Assembly: GCA_900554315.1 (NCBI GenBank)
Contig: USGP01000005.1
Span: 3,050 to 67,049 of the forward strand
DNA: 64,000 nucleotides
Reading direction: 5' to 3'
DNA from: an uncultured Mycoplasmatota bacterium
GTDB lineage: Bacteria > Bacillota_I > Bacilli_A > RF39 > UBA660
Part shown: piece after piece, positions 23,207 to 55,826 of the stretch
Position numbering within the stretch: position 1 is the stretch's first letter
How the letters are laid out: each line of letters opens with the position of its first letter
Notes under the pieces: generated by a model
Seen by the model: the letters and a program-made list of their open reading frames with translations, nothing else
Database searches by the model: none
What the model was told of the DNA's origin: nothing
Position numbers and translations under genes: made by a program

Positions 23207-23946
23207 AATCTTTTTATTTAACAGATGCTGGAAAAGTTCGTAGTCATAATGAAGATAGCGTAATTATTGTTAAAAATCAAAATGATGACTACTTAATGGC
23301 TATTGCAGATGGAATGGGGGGACATTCTGCTGGAGAAGTTGCTAGTTCTATTGCGATAGGTTATTTAGGAAAGTATTTTAAAGAAACGTTTTTAAATATG
23401 AGCAAAGTAGATGCTGTTAATTGGATTCGAGATGCATTTAGTGAGATTAATACGCTTATTTTTCAACATGAGAAAACACATCCTGAGAGTAAAGGAATGG
23501 GTACTACTTTAGTACTTGCTATTTTGACAAAAGATTATTTATTATTTGGTAATGTAGGAGATTCTAGTGGCTTCGTTATGAAAGATGATAAACTTCATAA
23601 GGTTACCTATGATCATACCTTAGTTAATTTGTTAGTTAGTGCGGGTGAACTTACCAAAGAAGAAGCTAGTGTTCACCCTAAAAAGAATGTACTTATGAAG
23701 GCACTTGGTGCTGCTACTTCTGTAGAAGTTGATATTTTTGATTGTGATATGGATATTACGGAAATTCTTCTTTCTAGTGATGGGCTTACTAATATGTTAG
23801 ATAAAGATCAAATAGAAAAAGTATTACTTAGTGATTTAGATGTAGAAGATAAAGTAATTCGATTAATACAGAAAGCGAATAATCGTGGGGGTACAGATAA
23901 TATTTCGGTTGCTTATTTAGTTCGTGATGAGGAAGGTGACGAATGA
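23203..23946 (+). CDS. prpC: PP2C-family Ser/Thr phosphatase
   Basis: NEDS...ADGMGGH...GMGTT...SDGL...GGTDNIS motifs. Confidence 0.9.
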   Translation: MKSFYLTDAGKVRSHNEDSVIIVKNQNDDYLMAIADGMGGHSAGEVASSIAIGYLGKYFKETFLNMSKVDAVNWIRDAFSEINTLIFQHEKTHPESKGMGTTLVLAILTKDYLLFGNVGDSSGFVMKDDKLHKVTYDHTLVNLLVSAGELTKEEASVHPKKNVLMKALGAATSVEVDIFDCDMDITEILLSSDGLTNMLDKDQIEKVLLSDLDVEDKVIRLIQKANNRGGTDNISVAYLVRDEEGDE

Positions 23947-25742: not shown

Positions 25743-25751
25743 GGGGATTAT

Positions 25752-26591: not shown

Positions 26592-27207
26592 TGCTTCTTT
26601 TTTAAGTAGTTCTAATATTCCTGTTGATTTAAAACGATTAAATGAAACTGATGTTGATTATATTCATGTAGATGTTATGGATGGTAAGTTTGTCCCAAAT
26701 AAGACAATGCCATTTAGTGAAATGAAAAATATTTATAAATATACAGATAAACGATTAGATGTTCATTTAATGGTTGAAGATCCAAGTAAGTATATTCCTT
26801 TATATGCTGAATTAAATACTGAGTACATTACATTTCATGTGGAAACTATAGATCATATTGAGGAAAATTTGGAATTAATAAAAAGTTTTGGTATTAAGTG
26901 TGGGTTAGCAATAAAACCTGATACTCCAGTAAAAAGCTTAGTCCCTTATTTACCTCTTTTGGATTTAATTTTAGTTATGAGTGTTGAGCCTGGTCAAGGT
27001 GGACAAGAATTTATTCCTTTGTCAGAAGCTAAAATTATGGAAGCAAGGGCATTAGTAGAATCTTACCATTCTAAGGCTTTGATTAATGTAGATGGCGGAG
27101 TTGATAATAAAACAAAGAAAATGTGTCAAGATTGTGATATATTGACATCTGGAAGTTATATTATAAAAGCAAAGTCTTTTCAAAATCAAATTGATAGTTT
27201 AAGATAA
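26581..27207 (+). CDS. rpe: Ribulose-phosphate 3-epimerase
   Basis: HVDVMDG, DVHLMV, VMSVEPGQGGQ and VDGG motifs. Confidence 0.92.
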   Translation: MKVSASFLSSSNIPVDLKRLNETDVDYIHVDVMDGKFVPNKTMPFSEMKNIYKYTDKRLDVHLMVEDPSKYIPLYAELNTEYITFHVETIDHIEENLELIKSFGIKCGLAIKPDTPVKSLVPYLPLLDLILVMSVEPGQGGQEFIPLSEAKIMEARALVESYHSKALINVDGGVDNKTKKMCQDCDILTSGSYIIKAKSFQNQIDSLR

Positions 27208-27227
27208 GAATAATTGGGGTGATAAAT

Positions 27228-28640
27228 ATGGATGAACAAAAGCCAGTTGTTAATACTGATAAAGATGTTGTTTCGTCAGAAGATGTTTTAGCAGTTATTA
27301 ATGGTAATCAGGAGGTTTTACAACAACAGATGGAGAAGGCTAAGGAGCTTTCTGCACAAGATGCTTCTATGAATTCTTTGTCTATTGATCAACAAAAGAG
27401 ATTGATGGATGAGCAAAAGAAAAAAGCAGAAGAGGAAGCACGCTTGGCTGCTGAAAGACAGAAAGCTGCGGAAGAAGAGGCTTATCAAAAATTATCTCCT
27501 AAAGAGAGGAGAAAGTATGATAAAGAAAAAGCTAAAAGAGCAAAAGAAGAAGCAAAACGTCAAAAGCAATTAGCACGTAAAGCTGGAAAAAATGTTGCGG
27601 TTGTTGCTAGGCCTGAACCAGCTCCGGTATCCACTTTGGCTACGACACCAGTCTCTAATAATATTACGGCAACAGCTGATGTAAGTGCTACTTCTCCTAT
27701 GGCGTCTAATACCAATGCTTCTTCTACTAATGTTGCAGAAACCCCTTTGACATCTATAGGAAATACTAATTCAAGTGTTGCAGTAACACAATCAAATCCT
27801 GTTCAATCTGCTGCACCAGTATCTAACAATTCAACTCCAGTATCAACACCAACAGCTACCTCCGGTTCTGCACAACCAGTGGTATCAGCTCCTAATGCAG
27901 TTTCTTCTACAACATCAGGAACTTCTAATTCTGGAGAAACTACACCAGTTGCTTCTAGTTCTCCAATAACTGCTGCAACTACTACAACTGTAGATAGTTC
28001 TGGTACTACTTCTGAAACTACTCCAGCACCTGATACTACATCTACTGATACCAAAGAAGAAGGTAAAGGTGGAAAAAAGAGAAAGAAGAAAGAAAGTAAT
28101 TTAAAATATTATTTAACTTTTATCTTTTTGGCTTTACTAATATGGATGATTGTTTTTTTACCGGATATTAGTAATTTTGTATCTAATTATTTACAGAAGA
28201 AACAACAAGAAGCTCAACCTGAAATTACTACTGGTAAGTTAGTTTGCGAAATGAATACTAATGATGCTACATTAGATTATAATTATAAAGCTGTTTTTGA
28301 TTTTGAGGATAGCTTAATGAAAAAATTAACTTATACTACGACTGTGAAAGGTGATCCAAGTTTGGATGCCGTTGCTTTGTCGGGAATGGATTCATCTTGT
28401 AATCTATTACAAACACATGTTCTTAATATGAATGGTGTTGAGGTTAATTGTGATTTACAAGAAGGTACTTTTGTTAATGAACAAATCTTAGATTATGAAT
28501 TGATTAATCGTGAGGAGTTAACTACGGCTTATTTAGAAGCTGGTGGTACTTATCCAGATTATCAATATAATCAGTATATTGATGAAATAGAAAAGCAAAT
28601 GAATGCAAGTAATTATACTTGTAAGAAAGAAAGTAGTTGA
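27228..28640 (+). CDS. Bitopic membrane protein: K/E-rich coil, S/T/P/A low-complexity tail, TM helix, four-Cys C-terminal domain
   Basis: No signal peptide. KGGKKRKKKES precedes the single TM helix. Paralog of the next gene. Confidence 0.65.
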   Translation: MDEQKPVVNTDKDVVSSEDVLAVINGNQEVLQQQMEKAKELSAQDASMNSLSIDQQKRLMDEQKKKAEEEARLAAERQKAAEEEAYQKLSPKERRKYDKEKAKRAKEEAKRQKQLARKAGKNVAVVARPEPAPVSTLATTPVSNNITATADVSATSPMASNTNASSTNVAETPLTSIGNTNSSVAVTQSNPVQSAAPVSNNSTPVSTPTATSGSAQPVVSAPNAVSSTTSGTSNSGETTPVASSSPITAATTTTVDSSGTTSETTPAPDTTSTDTKEEGKGGKKRKKKESNLKYYLTFIFLALLIWMIVFLPDISNFVSNYLQKKQQEAQPEITTGKLVCEMNTNDATLDYNYKAVFDFEDSLMKKLTYTTTVKGDPSLDAVALSGMDSSCNLLQTHVLNMNGVEVNCDLQEGTFVNEQILDYELINREELTTAYLEAGGTYPDYQYNQYIDEIEKQMNASNYTCKKESS

Positions 28641-28650
28641 GGTGATTAAA

Positions 28651-29604
28651 ATGAATTCAGAAAAAGATAATGTTGAATTATTAGGAAGTCCAACTACTAC
28701 TAATGAGAATACTTCTTCAGTGGCAAATCCTTCTACTTCAACAGAAGTTTTAGGAGCACCAACAGGAGCTGGTACTAATCCTGTTGATTCTACTATCAAT
28801 CAGACAGCTAGTACTTCTACAAATACAGTTTCTAATGAAGTGGCTAATTCTGCTGCGCCATCTCATATTTCACCGTTAGTTGCTAAACCTACTATTTCTG
28901 GTACGACAGCTAATTCTCCTAGAATTAATCCTTCTGATACGATGGCAAGTTATACTTCTCATGCTCCACAGACTCCTTTGCATGTTGAAAAGACAAAAGA
29001 TGAAATATCTAATAATGGTGGTAGTGTTGCTCCACCAATAAAGGTTGATGATTCTACTACACAACCTAAAGGTAAACCTTTGAATCCTATTGTTTTGATT
29101 ATTGTTTTTGTTATTATTTTAGGTACAGTAATTTTACTTCCATATTCTAAGGATTTATTTGGCAATATATTTTCTAATGATACCGCTACAGATGAAGAAA
29201 AAGTAACAAATGGTTCATTAGTTTGTACGTTAGAGAATACAGATGATGATAATAATAGTTTCGAATATACAGAAACTTATACGTTTACTAATTCTGAAGT
29301 AGATACGTTAGAACATGAGGAGTTAATTCAAGGAGATGCTGATTTCTTGAATGAAAGAAATGATAGATGTCAATTATTAAAACAAAATGCATCTTCTATT
29401 GAAGGGGTAGAGATTAACTGTGATTTGAATACTAGCAATATGGTAGAAACACAAAAGTTTAATTTGGCCCGAGTAGATTTTGACCAACTTTCTACTGCTT
29501 TTATGGAAGCAGGAGGAGTTTATCCAAATGCTGAGGCTGGAGATTCTTATACTGAAGTTCAACATTCTATGGAAATAGCTGGATATACTTGCGAGGTAAA
29601 ATAA
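28651..29604 (+). CDS. Bitopic membrane protein, paralog of 27228-28640
   Basis: Same architecture. The C-terminal domain aligns with all four Cys conserved (LVC, C.LL, V(E)(V/I)NCDL, YTC). GAGGTG RBS. Confidence 0.65.
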   Translation: MNSEKDNVELLGSPTTTNENTSSVANPSTSTEVLGAPTGAGTNPVDSTINQTASTSTNTVSNEVANSAAPSHISPLVAKPTISGTTANSPRINPSDTMASYTSHAPQTPLHVEKTKDEISNNGGSVAPPIKVDDSTTQPKGKPLNPIVLIIVFVIILGTVILLPYSKDLFGNIFSNDTATDEEKVTNGSLVCTLENTDDDNNSFEYTETYTFTNSEVDTLEHEELIQGDADFLNERNDRCQLLKQNASSIEGVEINCDLNTSNMVETQKFNLARVDFDQLSTAFMEAGGVYPNAEAGDSYTEVQHSMEIAGYTCEVK

Positions 29605-29701
29605 TTTACTGAGTTTACATTTTTTACAATTGGTAATTATTGTCAATGTATTGTAAATTCTTTGTAAATATGATATATTCATATTCACAAGGAGTTTTTT
29701 T

Positions 29702-30382
29702 ATGAAAAGATTTAGTTATATCCTGAGTTCTATTTTAATTATAGGGATAATTAGTTATTTTGTAGTTGATGGTATTCAAAGTATGAAGTTAACTACAATT
29801 TCTACAGATCTTGATGTTAAAAATATTAATACTTCTGAGTTATTAGAATATGGTGATAGTCAAGATAAAGAGAAAAATGACAATGAAACAACAGATGAAG
29901 TAGAAGAAGATACAACTGAAGAAGAAAATATAGAAGAAGAAAAAAATGAAAAGACAAAAGCTGTAAAAGAAGAAACTACTGAGCCAGTAGAAACTAGTTC
30001 AGTTTCTAATGAACCAGTTATAGTGAATGATGTTTTAGAAACACAGATTGGTAGTTTGAGTGGATATGGACCTGATTGTGCAGGTTGCAGTGGATATCTT
30101 GCTAGTGGAAGATATGTTGGTAATGGTAATATTACTTACTATGATTCACAATATGGTAATGTACGTATTTTGTCGGGAGATAGTAGTTATCCTTTCGGAA
30201 CAATCGTTAGAGTAAAAAATTCTAAGTTTAGTGAGTTTATTGGTATTGTTTTAGATAGAGGGGGAGCAGTAGGTTTTGGAAAAAGTCATTTGTTTGATTT
30301 GTTATTTGCAACCTCAGATGAGGCTCGTACTAACGCTGTTTCTTATAATACAACTTTTGAAATTTTAAGATATGGATATTAG
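29702..30382 (+). CDS. 3D-domain (DPBB-fold) secreted cell-wall-associated protein
   Basis: N-terminal TM/signal segment, acidic linker, and YGPDCAGCSG...GTIVRV...VLDRGGAVG...DLLF, typical of 3D/YuiC-like domains. Confidence 0.7.
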   Translation: MKRFSYILSSILIIGIISYFVVDGIQSMKLTTISTDLDVKNINTSELLEYGDSQDKEKNDNETTDEVEEDTTEEENIEEEKNEKTKAVKEETTEPVETSSVSNEPVIVNDVLETQIGSLSGYGPDCAGCSGYLASGRYVGNGNITYYDSQYGNVRILSGDSSYPFGTIVRVKNSKFSEFIGIVLDRGGAVGFGKSHLFDLLFATSDEARTNAVSYNTTFEILRYGY

Positions 30383-30405: not shown

Positions 30406-30452
30406 ATGTTTTATGATAAAATGGTTTTGCTATACAAGATGGAGGTATTTTG

Positions 30453-32609
30453 ATGAATGAATTTATTATTAAAGAAATAGCCAATAATTTAAATATTACG
30501 GATAAACAAGTAGAGGTTGTTTTGTCTATGTTAGCTGAAGGAAATACTGTTCCTTTTATTGCTAGATATAGAAAAGAGGCAACTGGTGCTTTGGATGAAG
30601 AAACGATTCGTTCTATTAATGAAGTTTATGAGTATCAAGTTAATTTGTTAAAACGTAAAGAAGATGTTATTCGTTTAATAGATGAGAAAGGAATGCTTAC
30701 AGATGAATTAAAAAATTCTATTATGAATTGTACTAAATTAGTAGAAGTTGAAGATTTGTATCGTCCTTATAAAGAAAAGAAAAAGACAAAGGCAACAGAA
30801 GCAATAGCTTTAGGTCTAGAACCACTTGCTAAAATGATGATGAGTTTTCCAACAACTGGAAGTTTGGAAGAGATGACTAGTAAATTTGTAAAAGATAAAG
30901 TGAAAAATGTGGAAGAAGCTATTACTGGTGCTAAATACATTATTGCTGAATGGATTAGTGATAATGCTAGTTATCGTAAATGGATTCGTAGTTATTTTTA
31001 CAAAAATGGAATTATTACATCTAAGATTAAGAAAAATGCAGAAGATGAGAATAAAGTGTATGAGATGTATTATGATTATAATGAACCAGTAAAATGGATT
31101 AAACCTCATCGTATTTTGGCTTTAAATCGTGGTGAAAAAGAAAAAGTATTAACAGTTTCTATTGATGTGGATAAAGATGGGATTCTTTCTTATTTGGAAA
31201 AGAAATTAATTAAAAATGAAAAGTCTTTTGTGGTAGATAGTATTAAAGAAGCCATTGAAGATTCTTATAAAAGATTAATTGCTCCTTCTATTGAAAGAGA
31301 AATTAGAGCAGAGCTTTCTGAAAAAGGTGAAGAAGCTGCTATTGATAATTTTGGTAAAAATTTAGAGGCTTTACTTTTAACTCCTCCTATGAAAGAACAA
31401 GTTGTACTTGCTTTTGATCCGGGTTTTGTTAATGGTTGTAAATTAGCTGTTGTAGATAAAAACGGTAAATATTTAGATTCTACAGTTATTAAACCATTTT
31501 TGAATAGTAATAGTGAGGATAGAATTCGTTTGTCTAAAGAGGTAGTTGTACAATTAATAAAAAAATATCATGTTGATATTATTGCTATTGGTAATGGTAC
31601 AGCTTCTCGTGAGTCTGAGAAATTTTGTGCTGATATGATAAAAGAATACAATTTGGATTGTAAGTATGTTATTGTTTCTGAAGCAGGTGCTTCTATTTAC
31701 AGTGCTTCTCCAATTGCGGCAGAAGAATTTCCTGATTTAGCAATTGAAAAACGTAGTGCTGTAAGTATTGGTCGTAGACTTCAAGATCCTCTTGCAGAAC
31801 TTGTTAAAATACCACCAGAAGGAATTGGAGTAGGGCTTTACCAACATGATGTTAGTCAAAAGAAACTTTCTAGTTCTTTGGATTTTGTTGTAGAAAAGTG
31901 TGTTAATAGTGTAGGAGTTAATGTTAATACTGCTTCTAGTTCTTTACTTAGTTATGTTTCTGGTCTTACAAAGAAAGCTTGCCAAAAATTAATTGAGTAT
32001 CGTGAAAAGGTTGGTAAGATTGTTTCTCGTGATGAAATTAGAAAGAAAAAGTTACTTACGGACAAAGCTTATGAACAAGCTATTGGTTTCTTACGAATTT
32101 CTGATGGGGATAATGCTTTAGATAAAACAGCAATTCATCCAGAAAGTTATAGTATTGCGGAAGCACTACTTAAAGATTTGGGATTTACTATTAATGATAT
32201 TGGTAGTCAAGAATTAATTGATGCTTTAAATAAAATTGATGTAGGAGAATATCAAGAAAAGTTAAATACTGATCAATATACTTTAGAAGATGTTATTTTG
32301 TCTTTAAAGAAACCTAATTTAGACCCTAGAGATGAAATGCCACAACCATTACTTAGAAGTGATATTTTGGATATTAAAGATTTGACTGTAGGTATGAAGT
32401 TACAAGGAACGGTTCGTAATGTAGTTGATTTTGGAGCATTTATTGATATTGGACTTCATAATGATGGACTCGCTCATATTTCTAAACTTACAGATAAATA
32501 TATTAAACATCCTAGTGAAGTTGTTAGTGTTGGAGATATCGTAGATTGCTATGTAGATGATATTAATTTAGAAAAAGGAAAGGTTAGCTTGAGTTTACTA
32601 CCTCGCTAA
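30453..32609 (+). CDS. tex: Tex-like transcription accessory protein (S1 domain)
   Basis: VPFIARYRKE N-terminus, YqgF-like core, HhH region, and C-terminal S1 domain GTVRNVVDFGAFIDIG. Confidence 0.92.
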   Translation: MNEFIIKEIANNLNITDKQVEVVLSMLAEGNTVPFIARYRKEATGALDEETIRSINEVYEYQVNLLKRKEDVIRLIDEKGMLTDELKNSIMNCTKLVEVEDLYRPYKEKKKTKATEAIALGLEPLAKMMMSFPTTGSLEEMTSKFVKDKVKNVEEAITGAKYIIAEWISDNASYRKWIRSYFYKNGIITSKIKKNAEDENKVYEMYYDYNEPVKWIKPHRILALNRGEKEKVLTVSIDVDKDGILSYLEKKLIKNEKSFVVDSIKEAIEDSYKRLIAPSIEREIRAELSEKGEEAAIDNFGKNLEALLLTPPMKEQVVLAFDPGFVNGCKLAVVDKNGKYLDSTVIKPFLNSNSEDRIRLSKEVVVQLIKKYHVDIIAIGNGTASRESEKFCADMIKEYNLDCKYVIVSEAGASIYSASPIAAEEFPDLAIEKRSAVSIGRRLQDPLAELVKIPPEGIGVGLYQHDVSQKKLSSSLDFVVEKCVNSVGVNVNTASSSLLSYVSGLTKKACQKLIEYREKVGKIVSRDEIRKKKLLTDKAYEQAIGFLRISDGDNALDKTAIHPESYSIAEALLKDLGFTINDIGSQELIDALNKIDVGEYQEKLNTDQYTLEDVILSLKKPNLDPRDEMPQPLLRSDILDIKDLTVGMKLQGTVRNVVDFGAFIDIGLHNDGLAHISKLTDKYIKHPSEVVSVGDIVDCYVDDINLEKGKVSLSLLPR

Positions 32610-32692: not shown

Positions 32693-34207
32693 ATGAAGAA
32701 GCGGTATTTTTTTATTGCTCTAGCTATTATAGCTTTAACTGTTTCTGGAATATTGGTAATTAATAAAGAGAGTTATGCGGATAAAAGTTATCAGAGTGAT
32801 TTATGTCCAACTCAATTACATGTAACCTTTGGAAATAAAGAAGATTCTTTCATTAATAGTGAAAAAAATAAAATTACAATACCATCTCTAATTTATCATG
32901 ATGCCAATAATAATCGTATCTTTGCTGGAGATTTAAGATATTTATATTATTATAAATATTATGATGATCAACATAATGTTTATTATGATGCTAACTGTGA
33001 AGACACATATATGTTTAATAATTCAAGGAAACAGTCTATTTTGATGGGATATTTGATTAATACAGTTGATTTTTCTTCTTTTGAAGGAGAAAATGATTAT
33101 TATAAGCAAATTTTAATTTTATGGGCAATGGATCGTTTGGCTGGATTTGATGATGATATAAATTATATATATAGTAATGGTGATGTTTATGAGGCACCTG
33201 TAGATTCAACTTATGATGATAAGTATAATAGTTTTGGTTTTAAAAATGAATGGAAATATGTTAATAACTTATCTGCTGGAGATAAAAAATTACTAAAAAC
33301 TTCTTTTGTAGGAGAAAAAATGTTGCAATATCTTCATACTTGGGATGAATATGTAAGTTGGTATTTAAATGATGCGAGTGTTGAATTGGATGCTATTAAT
33401 CTAGATGATATCAGTTATCATGTAACGAATGATTATGTAGAGACAGGGTTAATCATTCCTACTAGTACAGGTAAAATCTATTCTGATAAATTTAGCGGTT
33501 ATACAGTGAATGTTCAAAGTCCGATGGTTGTTGTGGATAAGAATGGAAAAGAAAAAAATGAATTTAAATCTGGAGAAGGTTTTAGGGTTAGAGTTCCTAT
33601 TTCTGAGATTATAGGTAATAGTTTAGATTATTCTATTAATATATCTGCAAATTTTTCTTTTCCTACAGTGACCATTTATAATTCTCGTGGAGTAGCATGC
33701 AGATATGAATTTCCTTCTCAACAAGTCCAAGCTTTATATCAACAATTGTCAACATCGGCCTATATTTCTACATGTAATTCTATTGAAACTTTAAATGATA
33801 CGCTGTTATTTCAATTTAGTCAAAGGATTGGGACTTTAAATGTTAAAGTAATCGACTCTTCTACTGGTAATAATTTAAGTAAAGCAGAAGTAACTGTTTA
33901 TGATTTGAAGGGTAACGAAGTATATAAATATGAAACTACTGATAAAGAATTAAATATTACCTTACCAGTAGGTGAATATATCGTTAAACAAACAGTAACC
34001 CCCCCAAATTATGAAGCACAAACGATTCAAATGAGAGTAGATGTTACAGAAGAAGGCATAGCTAATGCTGTTTTGGAAAATGCTCCTCTTGTTAATGTTC
34101 CGAATACGGCTATGACAACAGGTGTTTATGTTATCATTGGTGGTTTACTTGCAATAGCTGGTGGTATGATTGTTGGAATTACATTTAAAAAAAGAAAATC
34201 TATTTAG
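32693..34207 (+). CDS. Surface protein family member 1: signal peptide, unknown ~370-aa domain, CnaB/SpaA-like domain, VPNTA sorting signal
   Basis: INKESYA cleavage-like site. GEYIVKQTVTPPNYE prealbumin-fold motif. VPNTAM, hydrophobic stretch, then KKRKSI. Confidence 0.8.
   Translation: MKKRYFFIALAIIALTVSGILVINKESYADKSYQSDLCPTQLHVTFGNKEDSFINSEKNKITIPSLIYHDANNNRIFAGDLRYLYYYKYYDDQHNVYYDANCEDTYMFNNSRKQSILMGYLINTVDFSSFEGENDYYKQILILWAMDRLAGFDDDINYIYSNGDVYEAPVDSTYDDKYNSFGFKNEWKYVNNLSAGDKKLLKTSFVGEKMLQYLHTWDEYVSWYLNDASVELDAINLDDISYHVTNDYVETGLIIPTSTGKIYSDKFSGYTVNVQSPMVVVDKNGKEKNEFKSGEGFRVRVPISEIIGNSLDYSINISANFSFPTVTIYNSRGVACRYEFPSQQVQALYQQLSTSAYISTCNSIETLNDTLLFQFSQRIGTLNVKVIDSSTGNNLSKAEVTVYDLKGNEVYKYETTDKELNITLPVGEYIVKQTVTPPNYEAQTIQMRVDVTEEGIANAVLENAPLVNVPNTAMTTGVYVIIGGLLAIAGGMIVGITFKKRKSI
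33815..34164 (+). repeat. Copy 1 of a ~350-bp conserved 3' module (CnaB-like domain plus sorting signal)
   Basis: Alignable base for base with 36931-37280 and 40184-40533. Most differences are at third codon positions. Confidence 0.85.
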
Positions 34208-34217
34208 GGGGTGAACT

Positions 34218-35657
34218 ATGAAAAAGAAATATGTTGTTATTACCGTTAGTATTTTATTTGCTGTAGTTGCGGTTTTCTTATTGATTCAAAAGGATAGTTA
34301 TGCTGAGGATTATGATCCTACTTGTCCTGAGTATATTTCTGTTGAAGAATCTGATGAACAGTTGGGACTTATAAAAACAGATTATGAACAGATTTTGCTT
34401 CCTAAAGAAGTTATTGTTAAGAATAGAGGAACCATTTACGATAATTTGGCAATTTTAGTGAGAAGAGGTTTAGGTGGTAGACAATTTTATAATACTGATG
34501 TAAATGAAGTAATAGAGTCTATTCCTAATATTAGTTCTGATGATTATGAAAATCGTTATTATAAACAAATTATTTTCTGGTGGATTGGTGATTTGTTAGA
34601 AGGATATGACAATAATTTTAATTATCTTAATGGTAGAAAAGTTAATATAGAATCTGATTCTTCTGATAAATATAATTCAAATGGTGATTATAAATTTGAT
34701 AATAATTTGTCTGCATTGGAGAAAAAAGCAATTTTAGAATCAAAATATGGTGATAAAATAGCTCGGGCTATAGAACAATATTTTGAATTTTCTGATTGGT
34801 ATGAAGACTATCGTTATTCTGATGATGAAATTCCTGATTTTGTTATGGATGATATTGATATGAGCCATATTCATTATTATGCAACAGATGATTATATAGA
34901 AACAGATTTAATTTTTCCTACTGTAACCCAAGTATATTCTCCAGCTTTTAATTACTATACTGTGGATGTTAATGATGGTATTACTGTTTTAAATCAAAAC
35001 AATAATGTTACAAATGAATTTAAAAGTAGTGAAGGATTTAAACTGCGTATTCCTTTTTCTAAAATAGATGATAATTTAGCTTTGGAGTTCTCTGTTCAAG
35101 GAATTTCTCGTTATAATGAATATCAATATTATCATAATAAGCAAACTCATAGTAATCCTGTTCCTTATGATAGTTCTATTCATGAAAATTTAGTTCCAAA
35201 TGGAGTGTTGATGAGATGTGGTTCTTATGATGAAGAATTATTTATTCCTTTAGATATTAGTTATACTGAATCTATTGGTAATTTGAATATCAAAGTAATA
35301 GATGCTTCTACAGGAGATTTATTACCAAGTGCTGAGGTAACTGTCTTTGATGATAAAGATAATGAGGTTTATCGTCAAACTACTACTAAGAAGGAAATTA
35401 ACTTAAAATTACCAGAAGGAGAATATCTTATTAAGCAAACGGTTACTCCTCTAAATTATGAATCTATTACGATTCAAAAAAGAGTAACAGTTGAAACGGA
35501 TGATACTGCAGAAGCAGTATTAGAAAATGTGCCATTGGTAGATGTACCTGATACAGGTATGAATATAATTATTTTTGATATTATCGGTGGGTTAATTCTT
35601 GTCGCAGCGGGGATTCTTGTTGTAATTACTTTAAGAAAGAAAAGATTGCAAGGGTAA
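34218..35657 (+). CDS. Surface protein family member 2 (divergent), VPDTG sorting signal
   Basis: Same architecture. Starts 10 bp after member 1. VPDTGM, hydrophobic stretch, then RKKRLQG. Confidence 0.8.
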   Translation: MKKKYVVITVSILFAVVAVFLLIQKDSYAEDYDPTCPEYISVEESDEQLGLIKTDYEQILLPKEVIVKNRGTIYDNLAILVRRGLGGRQFYNTDVNEVIESIPNISSDDYENRYYKQIIFWWIGDLLEGYDNNFNYLNGRKVNIESDSSDKYNSNGDYKFDNNLSALEKKAILESKYGDKIARAIEQYFEFSDWYEDYRYSDDEIPDFVMDDIDMSHIHYYATDDYIETDLIFPTVTQVYSPAFNYYTVDVNDGITVLNQNNNVTNEFKSSEGFKLRIPFSKIDDNLALEFSVQGISRYNEYQYYHNKQTHSNPVPYDSSIHENLVPNGVLMRCGSYDEELFIPLDISYTESIGNLNIKVIDASTGDLLPSAEVTVFDDKDNEVYRQTTTKKEINLKLPEGEYLIKQTVTPLNYESITIQKRVTVETDDTAEAVLENVPLVDVPDTGMNIIIFDIIGGLILVAAGILVVITLRKKRLQG

Positions 35658-35730
35658 GGATTGTTGAAACGGTCTTTTCTTTTTTTCTCTTTTTGTGATA
35701 TATTATTGTTTATAATAGGAGAGTTGAGCT

Positions 35731-37323
35731 ATGGTAAATAAAAAAAGATATGGTATTGTTATTGTTTCAGTAATTATGTTAATGATTGCTGGTGTATTAA
35801 TGATTAATAAGGATAGTTATGCTATCGGTGTAAATCCTAATTATGGCTATAGTTGTCCTAAATATTTACTTCCTAATAGCGTTCCTGAAGAGGTATCTTA
35901 TATTAAGAATGGTAATAATAAGATTACTTTACCTGATTGGACTTATGATACTCTTGAAAGAACAGGCTTGCCTTCATTTATGGATGATTTTACTGTTTTT
36001 GTTTTTAATGCTCATTATTTTGATAAAGTTGAAGCTGATTATAATGGAAGAACTAATCCTTATTATCAAATTAATGATAGTGGTTCTTTAAAACCAACGG
36101 GTAATCATGATGTTTTATTGGGGTATTTGGTTAATATACCTAAATTTAGTTCTGATGTTGAGAAGAACTATTATTATCAACAACTTTTAATTTTTTGGGC
36201 TATGGATCGTATGATGGGATTTGATGATGATAAGAATTATTATGTTATAGGTGATGAAGATAATTTTGAGTTTATTGAATTACCTAAAGATAATTCTTAT
36301 GAAGATAAATATTTGATAGAAGATGTATCAGATGGTGATGATCATGCAATACAATATACTTGGAAGTATATTAATAATTTATCTGCTGGCGATAAAGAGA
36401 TGATAAAAAATTCTGATGTTGGAGATCAAATGTTAGATTACTTGGAAACTTGGGATAAATATGTTGATTGGTATTATAATAGTCAGGGTAATTTGAATGT
36501 AGAGCTTAATAATATTAGTCAATCTGATATATCTTATCATGTTACAAATGACTATATAGAAACACAATTAATTCGTCCTAATAGTGTGGGAAAGGCTTAT
36601 GAAGACCAATTGAAGTCTTATACCGTTAAGGTTTCTAGCCCTTTAGTGGTAGTAGATAGTAATGGTACTGAACAGACAAAGTTTTCTGCTGGTCAAGGTT
36701 TTAAAGTACGTATTCCAATCTCTGAAATTGAGAATAATAATATAGATTATTCTATTGAAATAAATGCAGATTATGAATTTCAGACAACAATGATTTATAA
36801 TGGACATAATCTGGAGAGAATAGAACTGTCTGATGAAGAACGACTTTATTTTTATGCCTTCACTGCATTTATTGGAGCACAAAAAGGTTGTAGTTCTACA
36901 GAGACTGCACATGATTCTATTACATTGAATTTTAGTCAGAAGATTGGTGATTTAAATGTTAAAGTAATTGATTCTTCGACTGGTAATAATTTAAGTAAGG
37001 CAGAAGTTACTATTTATGATTTAAAAGGGAACGAAGTGTATAAGTATGAAACTACAGATAGTGAATTAAATATCACGTTACCTGTTGGAGAATATATTGT
37101 TAAGCAGACGGTAACACCTCCAAATTATGAAGCACAAACAGTTCAGATGCGGGTTGATGTTACAGAATCTGGTGAGGCTCATGCTGTATTAGAGAATGCC
37201 CCACTTGTTAATGTACCAGATACGGCTATGAATTCTGTTATCTTTATAGTTATCGGTGGATTAATTGTCATTGCTGGTGGAATCTTGTTAGTTACTAATC
37301 TTAGAAAGAAAAAAGTAAGTTAA
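35731..37323 (+). CDS. Surface protein family member 3, VPDTA sorting signal
   Basis: Same architecture. VPDTAM, hydrophobic stretch, then RKKKVS. Confidence 0.8.
   Translation: MVNKKRYGIVIVSVIMLMIAGVLMINKDSYAIGVNPNYGYSCPKYLLPNSVPEEVSYIKNGNNKITLPDWTYDTLERTGLPSFMDDFTVFVFNAHYFDKVEADYNGRTNPYYQINDSGSLKPTGNHDVLLGYLVNIPKFSSDVEKNYYYQQLLIFWAMDRMMGFDDDKNYYVIGDEDNFEFIELPKDNSYEDKYLIEDVSDGDDHAIQYTWKYINNLSAGDKEMIKNSDVGDQMLDYLETWDKYVDWYYNSQGNLNVELNNISQSDISYHVTNDYIETQLIRPNSVGKAYEDQLKSYTVKVSSPLVVVDSNGTEQTKFSAGQGFKVRIPISEIENNNIDYSIEINADYEFQTTMIYNGHNLERIELSDEERLYFYAFTAFIGAQKGCSSTETAHDSITLNFSQKIGDLNVKVIDSSTGNNLSKAEVTIYDLKGNEVYKYETTDSELNITLPVGEYIVKQTVTPPNYEAQTVQMRVDVTESGEAHAVLENAPLVNVPDTAMNSVIFIVIGGLIVIAGGILLVTNLRKKKVS
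36931..37280 (+). repeat. Copy 2 of the ~350-bp conserved 3' module
   Basis: See copy 1. Confidence 0.85.
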
Positions 37324-37350
37324 AGAATTGAATATTTCAATTCTTTTTTT
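37322..37350 (+). terminator. Rho-independent terminator
   Basis: agaattgaa/ttcaattct stem followed by T7. Confidence 0.8.
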
Positions 37351-37436
37351 GTCAAATTGGACATTTTTCTTCTTTATATATATTTATTTATAAGTTTTAT
37401 GATGTTATATTGATAATAGAAAAGGATAGATGATTT

Positions 37437-38921
37437 ATGAGAAAAATGTGGTTATTCTTAATTGTGGTTGCTTTCTTTTTTATAATTCCTTCTTTTTCTG
37501 CATCTGCAGAAAGAGGTGTGTATGATGAAGAAAGTTTAAGAGAGGCAATTGCTGCTGGTGGTACTGTTTATTTAGGAACTGATATTGAAGTGACTTCCCC
37601 TATTGAAATTACAAAAGACGTTCAAATTTATGGGGATTACAATAAAATATATTCTAATGAATATAATTCTATTTTTATTGTTAAAGATGGAACTGCTATT
37701 TTTAAAGAGCTGGATGTTGAATCTGAAAAAAATCCTTTGGTTGTTTATGATGGCGAAGTTCTTATGGATAATAGTTATATTGTCAGTTATAATTCTAGTC
37801 CTATTGTTTTATATAACGGTAAGTTTATAGTTGGTAATGAGGGATTATATTTGAATTCTTATAATCCTTATATTACTTTTCCTGATAATCCTAATGGGAA
37901 AATAGATATTGATTTATATGGTGATATTGATTTTTATACTGATGTAGAAGTTTCTTTTTATATCAATCCTAATGCTCCTGAAATTAATATTCAAAATATT
38001 AATAATGAATATAAATTTAGTTTTAGTCAAAATAAATTAAAGTTTGATGGCGATTATTATACTTTATATTCTAATGAGGTTAGTGATGAAAATAGAATAT
38101 CTATTGATGGTCATAAATATACTCATTTTTATACTGCAACTACAGAGGATGAATTTATAAATTATATTAATCAAAATAAGTCTGTTTGGTTAGGTGCTGA
38201 TATTACTTTAACAAAACCTCTTACTATTAAAGATAAGTCTTCTATTATATTTGGTGATGGTTGGGCTATTCGTCAAAATGATGGAGCAACTTTTAGTATT
38301 ACTGGTGATAGTAATATCATTATTAATGGTACTTGGTTTATTGGATTAGGACAATTAGAAATTAATGATGGTGCTGTTGTTACTTATGATGACATGGAAA
38401 CATTTGATAATCCTAGTACGTTAAATCTTAATGGTGGTACTTTAATTATTAAAGAAATGAGATTGTATAAAGATTTTAATATTAATATTCATAAAGGATT
38501 TAACACTATTACTAATGGAGCAGTTTTAGTATTAGAAAATCAAGAGCCTATTCAGTCTTGGCTTGGAGCAAAGTTAAATATTAATATTGATAATAATGTT
38601 ATTCAATTAAGATTATCATCAGAAAATTCTATTAATAAAATGGCTTTAAATGGTCAAAGGATTTTAGTGGATTTGGAAGATAAAACGAATAATTCTAAAG
38701 TAACAATGGAATCTAATCCTGTAGATTGTTGTGATGTTAGTATTGATGGAGAAGAGTCCTTTGTTGGCGATAAGGAAAAATGTAGAGTTTCCAATCCTGA
38801 GATTGTAGAAGTTCCTAATACATCTTTATTTTCTACAATGTTTACATATTCTGGAATTACTTTAATTATTGTAGGAGTTGGAGATATTTTAGTTAATTTA
38901 AAAAGAAGAAAAGAAAATTAA
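37437..38921 (+). CDS. Secreted protein with internally duplicated beta-helix-like module and VPNTS sorting signal
   Basis: Signal peptide ending SASA. Two related modules (EESLREAIAAGGTVYLGTDIEVTSPIEITKD and EDEFINYINQNKSVWLGADITLTKPLTIKD). VPNTSL, hydrophobic stretch, then KRRKEN. Confidence 0.75.
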   Translation: MRKMWLFLIVVAFFFIIPSFSASAERGVYDEESLREAIAAGGTVYLGTDIEVTSPIEITKDVQIYGDYNKIYSNEYNSIFIVKDGTAIFKELDVESEKNPLVVYDGEVLMDNSYIVSYNSSPIVLYNGKFIVGNEGLYLNSYNPYITFPDNPNGKIDIDLYGDIDFYTDVEVSFYINPNAPEINIQNINNEYKFSFSQNKLKFDGDYYTLYSNEVSDENRISIDGHKYTHFYTATTEDEFINYINQNKSVWLGADITLTKPLTIKDKSSIIFGDGWAIRQNDGATFSITGDSNIIINGTWFIGLGQLEINDGAVVTYDDMETFDNPSTLNLNGGTLIIKEMRLYKDFNINIHKGFNTITNGAVLVLENQEPIQSWLGAKLNINIDNNVIQLRLSSENSINKMALNGQRILVDLEDKTNNSKVTMESNPVDCCDVSIDGEESFVGDKEKCRVSNPEIVEVPNTSLFSTMFTYSGITLIIVGVGDILVNLKRRKEN

Positions 38922-38955
38922 AAAGAATTTCTGGTTGTTAGAAATTCTTTTTTTG
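38922..38955 (+). terminator. Rho-independent terminator
   Basis: aaagaatttct/agaaattcttt stem followed by a T-run. Confidence 0.8.
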
Positions 38956-39004
38956 ATAAAAATATAAATTCAGTGTATAATTATAAATAATAGAGGTGTT
39001 GCTT

Positions 39005-40576
39005 GTGAGGAAAGTGAAAAGAAAAAATATTATTATTGGGTTTGCTATTTTTGCTATTATTATATCTGGTATATTGATGATTAATAAATCTAGTTATGCA
39101 TATTTACCTATTGGTGGCGATTCTTGTGCTCGTGAGCTGAGAATGTTGACTGGTGATAAAGAAGAAGTATATGTTAAGGATGCAAATAATCGAATAGATT
39201 TGCCATATGGTAGATTTTATACTGATGTTATTCCAGAATCTTCCTTTTTATCTAGTTATCGAATGTTTGTAGGTAATGCACATATTTTTGATAAATATTA
39301 TGAAAATTATTATGGAGATGAACATTTTTCTTATCGAAGTCCAGACTATTTCAGAAAATCTTATTTATCTTCTTATTTAATGAATTATTTAGTTAATGAT
39401 ACTTATTTTAGTGATGATGAAAATGAAGATGATTATTATAAACAATTATTGGTTTTGTGGGCAATAGATAGAGTTGCTGGTTTTTCTGATGATATAAACT
39501 ATATTTATGATTATGATGTTGATGATATTGTAGAAGCTCCTGTAGATACTCAATATGATGATAAATATGAAATTGATAGGTATGATTATGATGAAGATGA
39601 TTATCATACTTATTATTATTGGAAATATGCTAATAATTTGTCAGCAGGGGATAAGAAATTATTGAAGAAGTCTAAGTATGGAGATAAGATGTTAGAGTAT
39701 CTTGATACTTGGGAAGATTATGTTACTTGGTATGTTGATCAAAATCGTAAGGTAGAATTAGATCCTTTAACACAAAGTGATATTAGTTATCGTGTTACTA
39801 ATGAGTATGTCGAAACCGGTTTAATTACTCCTACCAGTACTGGAAAAGTTTATTCTGATAAATTTAGTGGTTATACAGTAGATGTTGAAAGTCCAATGGT
39901 TGTCGTAAATAAAAATGGAGAAGAAGAAACTTCTTTTGATGCTGGAGAGAGTTTTAGAGTACGAATTCCTATTTCAGAAATTGAAAATAAAACACTTGAT
40001 TATTCTATTCATATTAATGGAGAATTTGAGTTTGATGCTTTGCAATTATATACAGGTTTGGAACCGACGAGATATGAAGAACCTTCTGCAGGTAGAATGT
40101 GGTTGTATGATTATTTAGAATATAGTGCTGTTACAAGGAATTGTAAAATAATCCAGACGTTAGATGCAGATTTAAATTTAGAGTTTAGTCAGAGAATTGG
40201 TAATTTAAATGTTAAAGTTATTGATTCTTCTACTGGTAATAATTTAAGTAGAGCAGAAGTTACTATTTATGATTTAAAAGGTAACGAAGTATATAAATAT
40301 GAAACTACTGATAGTGAATTAAATATTACTTTACCAGTAGGCGAATATATCGTTAAACAAACAGTAACTCCTCCAAATTATGAAGCACAAACAATTCAGA
40401 TGCGGGTAGATGTTACAGAAGATGGAACAGTTAATGCGGTATTAGAAAATGCACCTTTGATTGATGTACCAGATACAGCAATGAATTCTATTATCTTTGT
40501 GATTATTGGTGGATTGATCGTTATTGCTGGTGGACTATTGTTATTTACTAATTTAAGAAAAAGAAAAGTAAATTAA
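39005..40576 (+). CDS. Surface protein family member 4, VPDTA sorting signal
   Basis: Same architecture. GTG 39005 was chosen because it aligns with the ATG of member 1 behind the shared AATAGAGG RBS. VPDTAM, hydrophobic stretch, then RKRKVN. Confidence 0.8.
   Translation: MRKVKRKNIIIGFAIFAIIISGILMINKSSYAYLPIGGDSCARELRMLTGDKEEVYVKDANNRIDLPYGRFYTDVIPESSFLSSYRMFVGNAHIFDKYYENYYGDEHFSYRSPDYFRKSYLSSYLMNYLVNDTYFSDDENEDDYYKQLLVLWAIDRVAGFSDDINYIYDYDVDDIVEAPVDTQYDDKYEIDRYDYDEDDYHTYYYWKYANNLSAGDKKLLKKSKYGDKMLEYLDTWEDYVTWYVDQNRKVELDPLTQSDISYRVTNEYVETGLITPTSTGKVYSDKFSGYTVDVESPMVVVNKNGEEETSFDAGESFRVRIPISEIENKTLDYSIHINGEFEFDALQLYTGLEPTRYEEPSAGRMWLYDYLEYSAVTRNCKIIQTLDADLNLEFSQRIGNLNVKVIDSSTGNNLSRAEVTIYDLKGNEVYKYETTDSELNITLPVGEYIVKQTVTPPNYEAQTIQMRVDVTEDGTVNAVLENAPLIDVPDTAMNSIIFVIIGGLIVIAGGLLLFTNLRKRKVN
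40184..40533 (+). repeat. Copy 3 of the ~350-bp conserved 3' module
   Basis: See copy 1. Confidence 0.85.
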
Positions 40577-40600
40577 AAGAGTTGAAAACAACTCTTTTTT
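40575..40600. terminator. Bidirectional terminator between convergent genes
   Basis: aaaagagttg/caactctttt perfect stem. Confidence 0.8.
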
Positions 40601-41353: not shown

Positions 41354-42388
41354 ATGAATGATGTAGTAGAAAAACTTTTAACTTGGTATGTTAACAATAA
41401 AAGAAATCTTCCTTGGAGACAAGATAAAAATCCTTATCATGTTTGGATATCAGAAATTATGTTGCAGCAGACTAGGATTGAAGCTGTTCTCTCTTATTAT
41501 GAGAGATTTATGAAAGAGTTGCCTGATATTTCTTCTTTAGCAAGAGTGGATGAAGATAAGTTGTTAAAATTGTGGCAAGGTTTAGGATATTATAATCGGG
41601 CAAGAAACTTGAAAAAGGCTGCTATACAAATTATGGAACAATATGATAGTAAGTTTCCAACTACTTATGATGAAATTATTCACTTGCCTGGAATTGGTGA
41701 GTATACAGCTAGTGCTATTAGTTCTATTTGTTTTGGAGAACAAGAAGTTACTGTTGATGGTAATGTGATGAGAGTATTTACAAGATTTTATAATGATGAG
41801 TCTAATATTTCTAAGGCAAGTACGAAGAAGGTGATTCATGATCAGTTGCTTTCTTTGTCAGTTTCTGATTTTGGTCTTTTTAATGAGGCAATGATGGAAT
41901 TGGGAGAAAGAGTTTGTATTCCTAATGGAATGCCTAAGTGTGATGTTTGTCCTTTACAAGAAAAGTGTGAGGCTTATCATAATGAAAATTATTATTTATT
42001 TCCTGTGAAGGATGAAAAAAGGCCAAAAGAAGAAGTGGATATGACTGTTTTAATTTTTATTTGGAATAAAAAAACAATTGTTCAGAAGAGACAGCGTGTT
42101 GGTCTTCTTCATAATTTATATGAGTTTCCTAATGTGGATGGTAAATTATCTTCTGAAGATGTGTTTGAATATGGAAAAAAGTTTGGTACTGTTGAGCGTG
42201 TTTCTATAAGTATTTTTTATACACATGTTTTTACTCATAAAAAATGGAAGATGCAATCATATTTTGTATTTATGAAGAATGTTAATTGTCCAAATTTGTT
42301 TTCTAGTATATCTTCTATTGAAGATGATTTTGCTATACCTACGGCATTTAGTCCGTTTTTATATGTATTGAAGGAGGAGTTGAAATGA
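41354..42388 (+). CDS. mutY: A/G-specific adenine DNA glycosylase
   Basis: LPWR...PYHVWISEIMLQQT, HhH-GPD LPGIGEYTA, 4Fe-4S C..C.L...C, and a NUDIX-like C-terminus. Confidence 0.9.
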   Translation: MNDVVEKLLTWYVNNKRNLPWRQDKNPYHVWISEIMLQQTRIEAVLSYYERFMKELPDISSLARVDEDKLLKLWQGLGYYNRARNLKKAAIQIMEQYDSKFPTTYDEIIHLPGIGEYTASAISSICFGEQEVTVDGNVMRVFTRFYNDESNISKASTKKVIHDQLLSLSVSDFGLFNEAMMELGERVCIPNGMPKCDVCPLQEKCEAYHNENYYLFPVKDEKRPKEEVDMTVLIFIWNKKTIVQKRQRVGLLHNLYEFPNVDGKLSSEDVFEYGKKFGTVERVSISIFYTHVFTHKKWKMQSYFVFMKNVNCPNLFSSISSIEDDFAIPTAFSPFLYVLKEELK

Positions 42389-43140
42389 AAATTGTATCAT
42401 GGAATGTTGCAGGGATTAGAGCATGTTTAAAAAAAGGATTAGCTGATTTTTTTCAGAATGTGGATGCTGATGTTTTTTGTATGCAAGAAGTAAAAGCAAC
42501 AGAAGATCAATTTGATTTTAGACCTGATGGATATCAGATGTACTTATATTCAGCTGTTAGAAAAGGATATTCTGGTACTTGTGTTTATACCCGAAAAAAG
42601 CCTATTTCTGTTTTTTATGGTATTGGAGATTCGGAGTATGATGATGAAGGTCGTAATATTACGTTGGAATTTGAAAATTTTTATCTTGTTAATTGTTATG
42701 TGCCTAATGTCAAACGTGGATTAGAGAGAATGGAATCTCGTATGCGTTATGAAGATTTATTTTTATCTTATATTAAAAAATTGGAGGAGAAAAAGCCTGT
42801 TATTTTTTGTGGAGATATGAATGTTGCTCATGAAGTGATTGATATTAAAAATGCAAAATCTAATATAGGAAATGCTGGTTTTACATATGAAGAACGTGGA
42901 AAATTTAGTGATATGTTAAGTGTTGGTTTTGTTGATACTTTTCGTTATTTATATCCTGATAAATCTGATTGTTATACTTGGTGGAGTTATCGAAAAGGAG
43001 TTAGAGAAAAAAATATTGGATGGAGGATTGATTATTTTGTAGTATCAAAATCTTTTATTTCTAACGTAGAAGATAGTGTTATTTATGCTGATGTTTTAGG
43101 TAGTGATCATTGTCCAATTGGTCTTATAATAAAGGAGTAA
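42385..43140 (+). CDS. xth: Exodeoxyribonuclease III
   Basis: MKIVSWNV.G.R, QEVK, GDMNVAH and SDHCP motifs. Confidence 0.92.
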   Translation: MKIVSWNVAGIRACLKKGLADFFQNVDADVFCMQEVKATEDQFDFRPDGYQMYLYSAVRKGYSGTCVYTRKKPISVFYGIGDSEYDDEGRNITLEFENFYLVNCYVPNVKRGLERMESRMRYEDLFLSYIKKLEEKKPVIFCGDMNVAHEVIDIKNAKSNIGNAGFTYEERGKFSDMLSVGFVDTFRYLYPDKSDCYTWWSYRKGVREKNIGWRIDYFVVSKSFISNVEDSVIYADVLGSDHCPIGLIIKE

Positions 43141-55825: not shown

Positions 55826-55826
55826 T

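Follow-up and report, generated by a model that had tools for sequence, protein, structure and literature searches.

A tandem array of putative TIE-type adhesins with V-P-x-T sorting signals in a probable RF39-related gut Bacillota

Introduction

The architecture of TIE adhesins, and with it the Class II thioester domain (TED), was described by Miller, Banfield and Schwarz-Linek in 2018 (PMC6194298). BaTIE of Bacillus anthracis (BasC/BA5258), SaTIE and EfmTIE86 each comprise a signal peptide, a distal Class II TED with a β-sandwich insert, a CnaB stalk and a sorting signal, and the sole residues conserved across all TEDs are the Cys ([YFL]C-Phi-zeta) and Gln (Phi-Q-zeta-Phi-Phi) that form the bond (PMC6194298). 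Here we analyse a locus of five genes within 64,000 nucleotides of contig USGP01000005.1 (this whole stretch is hereafter the window, to which all coordinates refer), four of which encode paralogous proteins of the same layout. The four paralogs keep the TQxxPhiW helix motif of BaTIE as YY(K/T/Q/S)Q...W, but the positions of its Cys71 and Gln266 are occupied by neither Cys nor Gln, the isopeptide Lys is replaced by Val and the catalytic Glu by Gln, and two new invariant Cys are present. They also differ in having one stalk domain instead of the three of BaTIE, VP[DN]Tx in place of its LPATG, a family-specific insert after the TQ helix and an extra helix before the second Cys.

Sorting signals that open with Val-Pro have been published for RrgC (VPDTG; PMC5640630), for the thioester adhesin Cpa (VPPTG, processed by the class B sortase Spy0129; PMC3019223) and in a paper on pilus islet 2 (VPETG; PMC3178606). 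These share Val-Pro at positions 1 and 2 and Thr at position 4 with the signals described below, and Cpa also carries thioester domains. They differ in ending in Gly and in lying in pilus operons with their own sortases, whereas position 5 in our family is mostly Asn, Ala, Met or Leu and the five proteins have neither a pilin-like motif nor an adjacent sortase gene. Substrates of class D sortases (LPNTA, LPDTA, LPDTS) resemble the window copies in having Asp or Asn at position 3, a non-Gly residue (Ala or Ser) at position 5 and a spore-forming host. They have Leu rather than Val at position 1, and across our family position 5 is unconstrained.

A sister clade of TED proteins from uncultured gut Bacilli (for example P0143, P0266 and L042:8410-9957; one cluster comes from Candidatus Onthousia faecavium) shows 27–31% full-length identity to the window paralogs. 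Both groups have a signal peptide ending in ...SYA, a GY.D..NY ... NNLS..DK insert, a single SpaA domain and a VP[DN]Tx tail. The sister clade differs in that both the thioester pair (Cys, Gln) and the isopeptide residues (Lys, Glu, Asn) are retained and the new Cys are lacking, and in having a sortase gene directly downstream, which the window array does not. We read the locus as a probable tandem set of genes for five secreted surface proteins, carried by an uncultured, walled, spore-forming gut Bacillota related to the GTDB order RF39.

Results

Organization of the array

According to the open reading frame (ORF) listing of the window, five consecutive + strand ORFs of 504, 479, 530, 494 and 526 aa occupy positions 32693–40576. 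The original prediction had described five secreted ORFs here, and both its exact coordinates and the signal peptides were reproduced. The features are as follows.

32693–34207, +: paralog 1, 504 aa; SpaA E 3.9e-9; tail VPNTA..KKRKSI
32693–32779: signal peptide of paralog 1, aa 1–29
32780–33826: TED-like head of paralog 1, aa 30–378, with the TQxxPhiW-type stretch YYKQILILW, whose Gln is Gln139
32804–32806: Cys38 of paralog 1
33773–33775: Cys361 of paralog 1
33833–34081: SpaA/CnaB domain of paralog 1, aa 381–463
34097–34111: VPNTA of paralog 1, aa 469–473, followed by a transmembrane segment and KKRKSI
34218–35657, +: paralog 2, 479 aa; SpaA E 4.1e-7; Cys 36 and 334, no others
35544–35558: VPDTG of paralog 2, aa 443–447, followed by a transmembrane segment and RKKRLQG
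35731–37323, +: paralog 3, 530 aa; SpaA E 2.3e-10; Cys 42 and 387, no others
37213–37227: VPDTA of paralog 3, aa 495–499, followed by a transmembrane segment and RKKKVS
37437–38921, +: unrelated protein (fourth gene), 494 aa; VPNTS at aa 459–463 (38811–38825), followed by a transmembrane segment and KRRKEN
38996–40576, +: paralog 5, 526 aa from a GTG start (523 aa in the database call); SpaA E 2e-10; Cys 44 and 383, no others
40466–40480: VPDTA of paralog 5, aa 491–495, followed by a transmembrane segment and RKRKVN
40575–40598: terminator-like end of the array, a perfect inverted repeat (10 bp, T-runs on both strands) that separates gene 5 from a convergent ylmH-like gene

All five N-termini consist of a K/R-rich n-region and a hydrophobic stretch, which ends in SFSASA in the unrelated protein and in INK(E/D/S)SYA or IQKDSYA in the four paralogs; the original prediction had INK(E/D/S)SYA for all four. 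The terminator-like repeat comes from a consensus scan only, which returned 3 sites against 1.4 expected, and a promoter consensus scan performed no better than chance (68 sites against 68.7 expected). A protein identical to paralog 1 is present on at least 20 metagenome contigs. For paralog 5, no database record matched its 523-aa form exactly.

The same five-gene array occurs at 97–99% identity on human-gut contigs (inspected places up to 222 kb; recorded up to ~310 kb). Its G+C content (0.27–0.29) equals that of the flanks and its synteny is kept in other strains, which speaks against a horizontally acquired island. What had been called an island is a resident paralog array without obvious insertion.

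The heads resemble Class II thioester domains

The region of ~350 aa between the signal peptide and the stalk had originally been left in no family. An AlphaFold2 model of paralog 1, built from a 69-sequence alignment, reached a predicted local distance difference test score (pLDDT) of 83 and a predicted template modelling score of 0.74. Foldseek comparison of this model with the PDB gave B. anthracis BaTIE as the best match (6fwv, E 1.2e-13), along with the EfmTIE86 TED (6fwy, E 2.8e-7); after the TIE matches came many pilins, aligned through the CnaB part of the model. The family profile searched against PDB sequences also matched 6fwv (E 1.4e-19) with the TED part aligned, the alignment spanning BaTIE chain residues 84–339, that is, the TQ helix, the Class II β-sandwich and the first isopeptide domain.

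A head-only profile searched against 1.84 billion representatives matched 122 proteins. The remote matches among them (hmmsearch E 1.8e-9 to 2.2e-7 with the head profile) pass or approach the Pfam TED model PF08341 and contain IYC(I/L)E, Y(L/I/M)TQ...WW and (D/E)YQR(T/A), textbook forms of the canonical YC-Phi-zeta, TQxxPhiW and YQR-T. Profile–profile alignment (hhalign) of the window clade with its canonical sister clade gave a probability of 100 and E 1.4e-41.

The conserved blocks of the heads can be read in the same terms. YYKQ(I/L)L..LW corresponds to the TQxx-Phi-W helix motif, and DISY.VTN.Y.ET and F(R/K)VRIPISEI to strands of the Class II β-sandwich that align to BaTIE. Across the family the TQ motif appears as YY(K/T/Q/S)Q(I/L)..(L/W)W, with an invariant Gln and a Trp conserved in at least 90%; this Trp lies at +5 in the window copies versus +4 in TQxx-Phi-W. 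Profile, fold and motif comparisons together identify the head as a divergent Class II TED of the TIE adhesin family. Profile search, structure prediction and Foldseek thus lead to a known adhesin family, and the earlier description of an unassigned one no longer stands. We therefore regard the four paralogs as likely TIE-type adhesins, each with a Sec signal peptide, a TED head, one CnaB/SpaA stalk and a sorting signal.

Replacement of cross-link residues and gain of two cysteines

To compare the residues involved in autocatalytic cross-linking, we used a 17-sequence alignment and a 93-sequence MAFFT alignment (18 window-type sequences and 75 canonical relatives). The key columns are listed below.

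Thioester Cys: Cys in 0 of 18 window-clade sequences; Cys in most of the 75 canonical relatives
Thioester Gln: not conserved in the window clade (Gln in 4 of 18, MAFFT column); Gln in most relatives
Isopeptide Lys: Val in 18 of 18 window-clade sequences; Lys in most relatives
Catalytic Glu: Gln in 18 of 18 window-clade sequences; Glu in most relatives
New Cys38: Cys in 18 of 18 window-clade sequences; in 0 of 75 relatives, which have Leu, Ala, Val or Ile
New Cys361: Cys in 18 of 18 window-clade sequences; in 0 of 75 relatives

The full Cys/Gln/Lys/Glu set is present in 54 of the 75 canonical relatives. The isopeptide Asn is retained in the window clade, and most relatives keep Lys, Glu and Asn. 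Three relatives (P0146, P0159 and P0160) have lost the thioester pair alone. Besides the Gln of the TQ motif and Gln433, no Gln is conserved in the 69 family sequences. These columns show that the residues predicted to form the thioester and the isopeptide bond have both been replaced in this clade, and binding by its heads is probably non-covalent.

Both Cys and the Gln of G.Y..KQ are invariant in the 69 family members, in agreement with the two conserved Cys and the Glu-to-Gln replacement noted at the outset. The single CnaB/SpaA domain per paralog was likewise recovered, with SpaA (PF17802) detected in all four above the 23.1-bit cut-off (E 4e-7 to 2e-10), but the loss of the thioester and isopeptide residues had been overlooked. 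Cys38 aligns to the Leu of SLPE in the N-terminal strand of the canonical clade, and Cys361 lies just ahead of the last long head strand, after the clade-specific helix. The pair probably forms a disulfide, putative at this stage, by which the N-terminal strand would be pinned to the region of the P/Q hairpin.

The alignments point to a coordinated loss of both autocatalytic cross-links with gain of a Cys pair, which is new here. A single clade combining the joint loss with the gain would offer a clean natural experiment on the purpose of such cross-links. We think it improbable that a further, joint proposal holds, in which the two Cys, beside the retained Gln of TQxxPhiW, would make up a new reactive centre in place of the Cys-Gln warhead and the anchoring enzyme would be an unclassified type of sortase. 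The centre might act as a redox-active disulfide forming mixed disulfides with host or mucus thiols, or through a thioester to Gln139, and would, if real, represent a new chemistry for covalent bacterial adhesion. The sortase would recognize V-P-[D/N]-[T/L] with no requirement for Gly, and would work without the canonical C-terminal Arg.

A V-P-x-T signal on two unrelated protein families

In gene order, the C-terminal motifs of the five proteins are VPNTA, VPDTG, VPDTA, VPNTS and VPDTA; after each come a hydrophobic stretch of ~22 residues and a K/R cluster. In six-frame stop-free stretches of at least 90 aa (22,477 residues of the window), VP[DN]T occurs five times, always in these tails, and is therefore not attributable to chance. 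The tripartite layout of a cell-wall sorting signal together with a signal peptide is found in all five proteins and is conserved in 69 homologs of the paralogs and 11 of the unrelated protein; Val and Pro are invariant and Thr nearly invariant across the two unrelated families. The shared VP[DN]T[A/G/S] tail of the original prediction is thereby confirmed, and its view that the tail reflects a shared signal rather than shared ancestry is supported, since the tail is conserved on two unrelated families and adjoins a sortase in relatives.

Among 117 tails of the paralog family, 98 read VPDT, 3 VPNT, 9 VPDL and 7 VPNL. The residue after Thr in the 101 VP[DN]T tails is Asn (27), Ala (27), Met (19), Leu (18), Gly (4) or Ser (4), and Gly follows Leu in 15 of the 16 VP[DN]L tails. 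The VP[DN]LG sub-clade was seen at loci L003, L004, L005, L007, L009, L011, L012, L014, L015, L018 and L021. Neither this sub-clade nor the variability of position 5 had been noticed originally. With Leu in place of Thr in some tails and position 5 free, the classical T|G sortase reaction cannot be assumed.

In a loose xPxTx tail search, 55 of the 75 canonical TED relatives had Val at position 1 and none had Leu. Given these V-P-x-T tails and the published signals of RrgC (VPDTG), Cpa (VPPTG) and the pilus islet 2 paper (VPETG), the earlier description of Val at position 1 as non-canonical was overstated. For VPDTA, VPNTA, VPNTG or VPDTS as sorting signals, no relevant paper turned up. Taken together, the conserved tails are very probably sortase-type sorting signals, in a V-P-x-T variant with precedents that is common throughout this TED branch. 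Because the standard LPXTG models do not detect these proteins, censuses of surface proteins in gut metagenomes will undercount them.

The unrelated protein of the fourth gene (37437–38921) has a signal peptide, matches no Pfam family and has 11 homologs among 5.8 billion clusters. Tails of these homologs read VPDTG, VPSTS and VPPTS, with V459, P460 and T462 invariant. Its AlphaFold2 model (pLDDT 85) is all-β, with a solenoid-like body of two similar halves and a C-terminal module containing C431, C432 and C449. Each half opens with an E(E/D)..(R/I)..I...G/K helix motif (EESLREAIAAGGTVYLGTDIEVTSPIEI at ~aa 31 and EDEFINYINQNKSVWLGADITLTKPLTI at ~aa 236), and C431 and C449 constitute a conserved Cys pair directly ahead of the sorting signal. 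Foldseek found no significant match for this protein, the best being the binding region of the Lactobacillus reuteri serine-rich repeat protein (SRRP; 5nxk, E 0.012, template modelling score ~0.2), followed by β-helix enzymes and tailspikes, also non-significant. It resembles the L. reuteri SRRP binding region and other right-handed β-solenoid surface proteins in its predicted all-β, solenoid-like fold on a presumably wall-anchored protein, but it belongs to no sequence family, and the fold match is non-significant.

A sortase gene is linked to the signal in relatives

No sortase was found in the window when ORFs of 150 aa or longer were searched with Pfam and NCBIfam, nor with a TLxTC regular expression or phmmer, as had been stated originally. 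The phmmer queries were Staphylococcus aureus SrtA and the lineage sortase described below; four ORFs within 22187–27207 were checked through existing Pfam annotation of their counterparts on strain contigs, and three ORFs at 41354–43140 and one at 30450–32609 by sequence searches alone. When the TLxTC and phmmer search covered the window and 37 loci, matches were confined to sister-clade loci.

In the sister clade, the genes for P0143 and P0266 are followed directly by a PF04203 sortase gene (overlapping or within 60 bp), then by a 197–201-aa protein without assignment and LtaS. A gene with a VP[DN]Tx tail likewise lies directly upstream of a PF04203 gene in L033–L037. A metagenome scan with the lineage sortase returned 15 loci, 14 of which include upstream DNA, and in all 14 the gene before the sortase has VP[DN]T(K/N/S) near its end (TPDTS in one case), with a transmembrane segment and a basic tail after it.

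At locus L042, the VP[DN]T-tailed TED gene and its sortase lie downstream of rlmN, prpC (PP2C), prkC (PASTA kinase), rsgA and rpe. These five genes share 53–74% amino-acid identity with window 22166–27207 (71–74% for the first three), and by this gene order the pair occupies the same chromosomal neighbourhood as the window array. Located 5 kb downstream of the pair, L042:15897-19412 encodes a protein of 1171 aa that combines one TED with nine SpaA domains and carries a VPNTS tail; its predicted domains make it a long-stalk form of this adhesin type.

The linked sortase is small (197–224 aa; L033:11466-12089, L035:11598-12191, L042:9935-10609, L038–L049) and has the catalytic His (MAHSGD) and Cys (TL(I/S)TC). 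It scored 40–42 bits against NF058671 (class D, LPxTATN-specific; cut-off 140), 27–35 against NF033746 (cut-off 165) and 36–52 against the class C model (cut-off 160), and so lies below every class cut-off, class D included. Its best PDB match is the Ebp pilus class C sortase, and all PDB alignments end at the Cys. Also new here is the pairing, in an uncultured gut lineage, of V-P-x-T-x signals with a predicted sortase subfamily below all curated class cut-offs. The whole TED branch appears to use V-P-x-T-x instead of LPXTG, tied to this small subfamily, and the linked sortase, if active, could be a tool with relaxed P1' specificity.

Anchoring model and alternative explanations

Once exported, the five proteins would be retained through their hydrophobic C-terminal segment and the K/R stop-transfer tail. 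The genome would encode, at another site, a membrane sortase, presumably of the small subfamily that is gene-linked to the same signal in relatives, which would cleave after the Thr of V-P-[D/N]-T and join the cleaved proteins to peptidoglycan. On balance we favour this description of the locus: a TIE-type array with sortase-anchored V-P-x-T tails that has lost its cross-links and gained a Cys pair, with cleavage and wall linkage inferred.

A number of results weigh against it. The five tails score below the cut-offs of PF00746 (15.0–16.6 bits against 20), TIGR01167 (10–12.7 against 15.9) and the best-matching NCBIfam signal model, NF058670, for the LPxTATN signal (15.5–18.3 against 32). Leu replaces the scissile Thr (VP[DN]LG) in 16 of 117 family members, and Gly occupies position 5 in only 4 of 101 VP[DN]T tails. 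No sortase was found in the window or within 10 kb of 32 window-type loci (~460 kb in total). The linked sortase of the relatives stops ~16 residues past the catalytic Cys (…TCTHDDLTKQS(I/V)YIFEQTNE), with no conserved Arg there. As for the heads, the window proteins give no Pfam TED (PF08341) match at E≤1, Pfam and NCBIfam returning for the five proteins SpaA and sub-threshold anchor matches only, and Cys38 sits in a lower-confidence part of the AlphaFold2 model.

The lack of a sortase in the window and near the 32 related loci, tails under the LPXTG model thresholds and Leu for Thr in 14% of the family would all suit proteins that stay unprocessed, with the hydrophobic segment and K/R cluster as a permanent membrane anchor and VP[DN]T as a conserved juxtamembrane linker. 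We consider this rather unlikely: the same motif recurs at the same distance from the transmembrane segment on two unrelated families and a wide TED branch, V-P is invariant in 69 sequences with head identities down to ~30%, more conservation than one would expect of a mere linker, and in relatives the motif is tightly coupled to a sortase gene, both in the 14 scan loci and at the loci of the two sister-clade proteins. It is also unlikely that a sporulation-linked class D sortase, whose signals the original prediction named as the nearest known, acts on the five proteins as on B. anthracis BasH and BasI (LPNTA) or Bacillus subtilis YhcR and YfkN, so that they would be attached to the envelope of the forespore or spore. 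Four of the five window tails have Ala or Ser at position 5, which would fit, as would CotE in the same window and the prediction that RF39 sporulates (PMC10868615). NCBIfam pairs the LPxTATN signal with a class D sortase (NF058671), and both are best matches here, of the tails and of the relatives' sortase, respectively. However, these scores fall far under the cut-offs (15–18 bits against 32 for tails, 40–42 against 140 for the sortase), the class C model scores equally well or better and the nearest structure solved so far belongs to class C. The class D combination of Leu at position 1 with Ala or Ser at position 5 was not seen, Val being invariant at position 1 and position 5 being unconstrained family-wide (Asn, Ala, Met, Leu, Gly or Ser), and the relatives' sortase adjoins LtaS and no recognized sporulation gene.

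The genes might also encode pilus subunits, a tip adhesin with shaft or base pilins polymerized by a class C or B pilus sortase, as for Cpa and RrgC. V-P-x-T-G signals are best known from pilins, TED heads are found on pilus tip adhesins, many pilins appeared among the Foldseek matches through the CnaB part, and the best PDB match of the relatives' sortase comes from the Ebp pilus. Against this, none of the five proteins has a [WYF]xPK[NDGSTH] pilin-like motif, each paralog has a single stalk domain without the isopeptide Lys and Glu, all four share one head-plus-stalk design that leaves no distinct shaft or base pilin, and no pilus sortase lies in or beside the array; a pilus is thus very unlikely. 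We give equally little credence to a non-sortase enzyme (an exosortase of XrtG-like type, a rhombosortase-like enzyme or another membrane protease) recognizing the V-P-[D/N] core, even though V-P-[D/N] alone is invariant, position 4 being Thr or Leu and position 5 free. The tripartite layout is also that of PEP-CTERM-type signals such as VPDSG-CTERM. Against this reading, the tails matched no such family in NCBIfam at E≤1, the window ORFs that were scanned included no exosortase-like gene, and the gene consistently adjacent in relatives is a PF04203 sortase.

Divergence of the paralogs

Identity between the paralogs is 31–52% in the heads and 59–87% in the stalk and tail, with the head of paralog 2 the most divergent (31–35% to the other heads). 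On a 405,814-bp metagenome contig of another strain, the first ~170 residues of P0036 are identical to paralog 1 and the remainder matches paralog 3; P0036 looks like a paralog 1/3 recombinant that perhaps arose via a deletion spanning paralog 2. This suggests that the paralogs may recombine between or within strains as a recombining, diversifying adhesin set, and the fast head divergence together with the P0036 chimera fits a diversifying adhesin repertoire. RF39-like Bacilli are common in the human gut and uncultured, and the array and its relatives would give them a defined adhesin repertoire.

Host and genomic neighbourhood

The paralog family comprises 147 clusters among 5.8 billion, with metagenomes as the sole source. 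Species representatives that carry it are labelled ‘uncultured Bacilli’, ‘Mycoplasmatota’ and Candidatus Faecimonas gallistercoris, the last of which is GTDB genus CAG-877, family CAG-611, order RF39 (PMC8035907). The window encodes the outer-spore-coat morphogenetic protein CotE (PF10628, E 3.5e-51; 10882–11412, +), as well as UppS (undecaprenyl-diphosphate synthase), CdsA, RseP and a PASTA kinase. This gene set marks the host as a walled spore-former, in agreement with the prediction of RF39 as walled and sporulating, where only RFN20 and ML615J-28 are named as lacking srtA/B (PMC10868615). A wall-less Mollicute host was rejected in view of CotE, UppS and the PASTA kinase. The presence of CotE in a genome of 29% G+C with Mycoplasmatota/RF39-labelled relatives is direct evidence of retained endospore coat genes.

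Collinearity with other strains (97–99% identity from 22693; L027, L028 and L030) stops abruptly at 40562, 14 bp before the stop codon of gene 5. Beyond this point the window has a ylmH-like gene (−) and two + strand ORFs read from sequence as mutY-like and xth-like, while the other strains have a Crp-like helix-turn-helix gene, nrdD, nrdG and dut. The break reflects either a rearrangement that ends at the array or a join made during assembly.

Upstream of the array, between rpe and tex, 27219–30382 (+) contains three conserved ORFs of 473, 333 and 226 aa without family assignment. The first two overlap by 38 bp, and all three are syntenic in every array-carrying strain. The third combines an N-terminal transmembrane segment with an acidic linker and a C-terminal domain that contains Cys (GYGPDCAGCSG). 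NCBIfam gave no informative match to these or other unannotated ORFs upstream of the array, and none was sortase-like.

Elsewhere in the window, 55145–57917 (+) encodes a leucine-rich repeat protein (internalin-like, weak) followed by a 700-aa transglutaminase-core protein, which matches the Mycoplasma ‘MAG6410 family transglutaminase-related lipoprotein’ model at E 6e-26, below its cut-off; judged by these matches, the two may be a surface or host-interaction pair. An ankyrin-repeat protein (Ank_4, E 2.9e-8) is encoded at 7573–8361 (+). Ankyrin-repeat proteins are uncommon in Bacillota.

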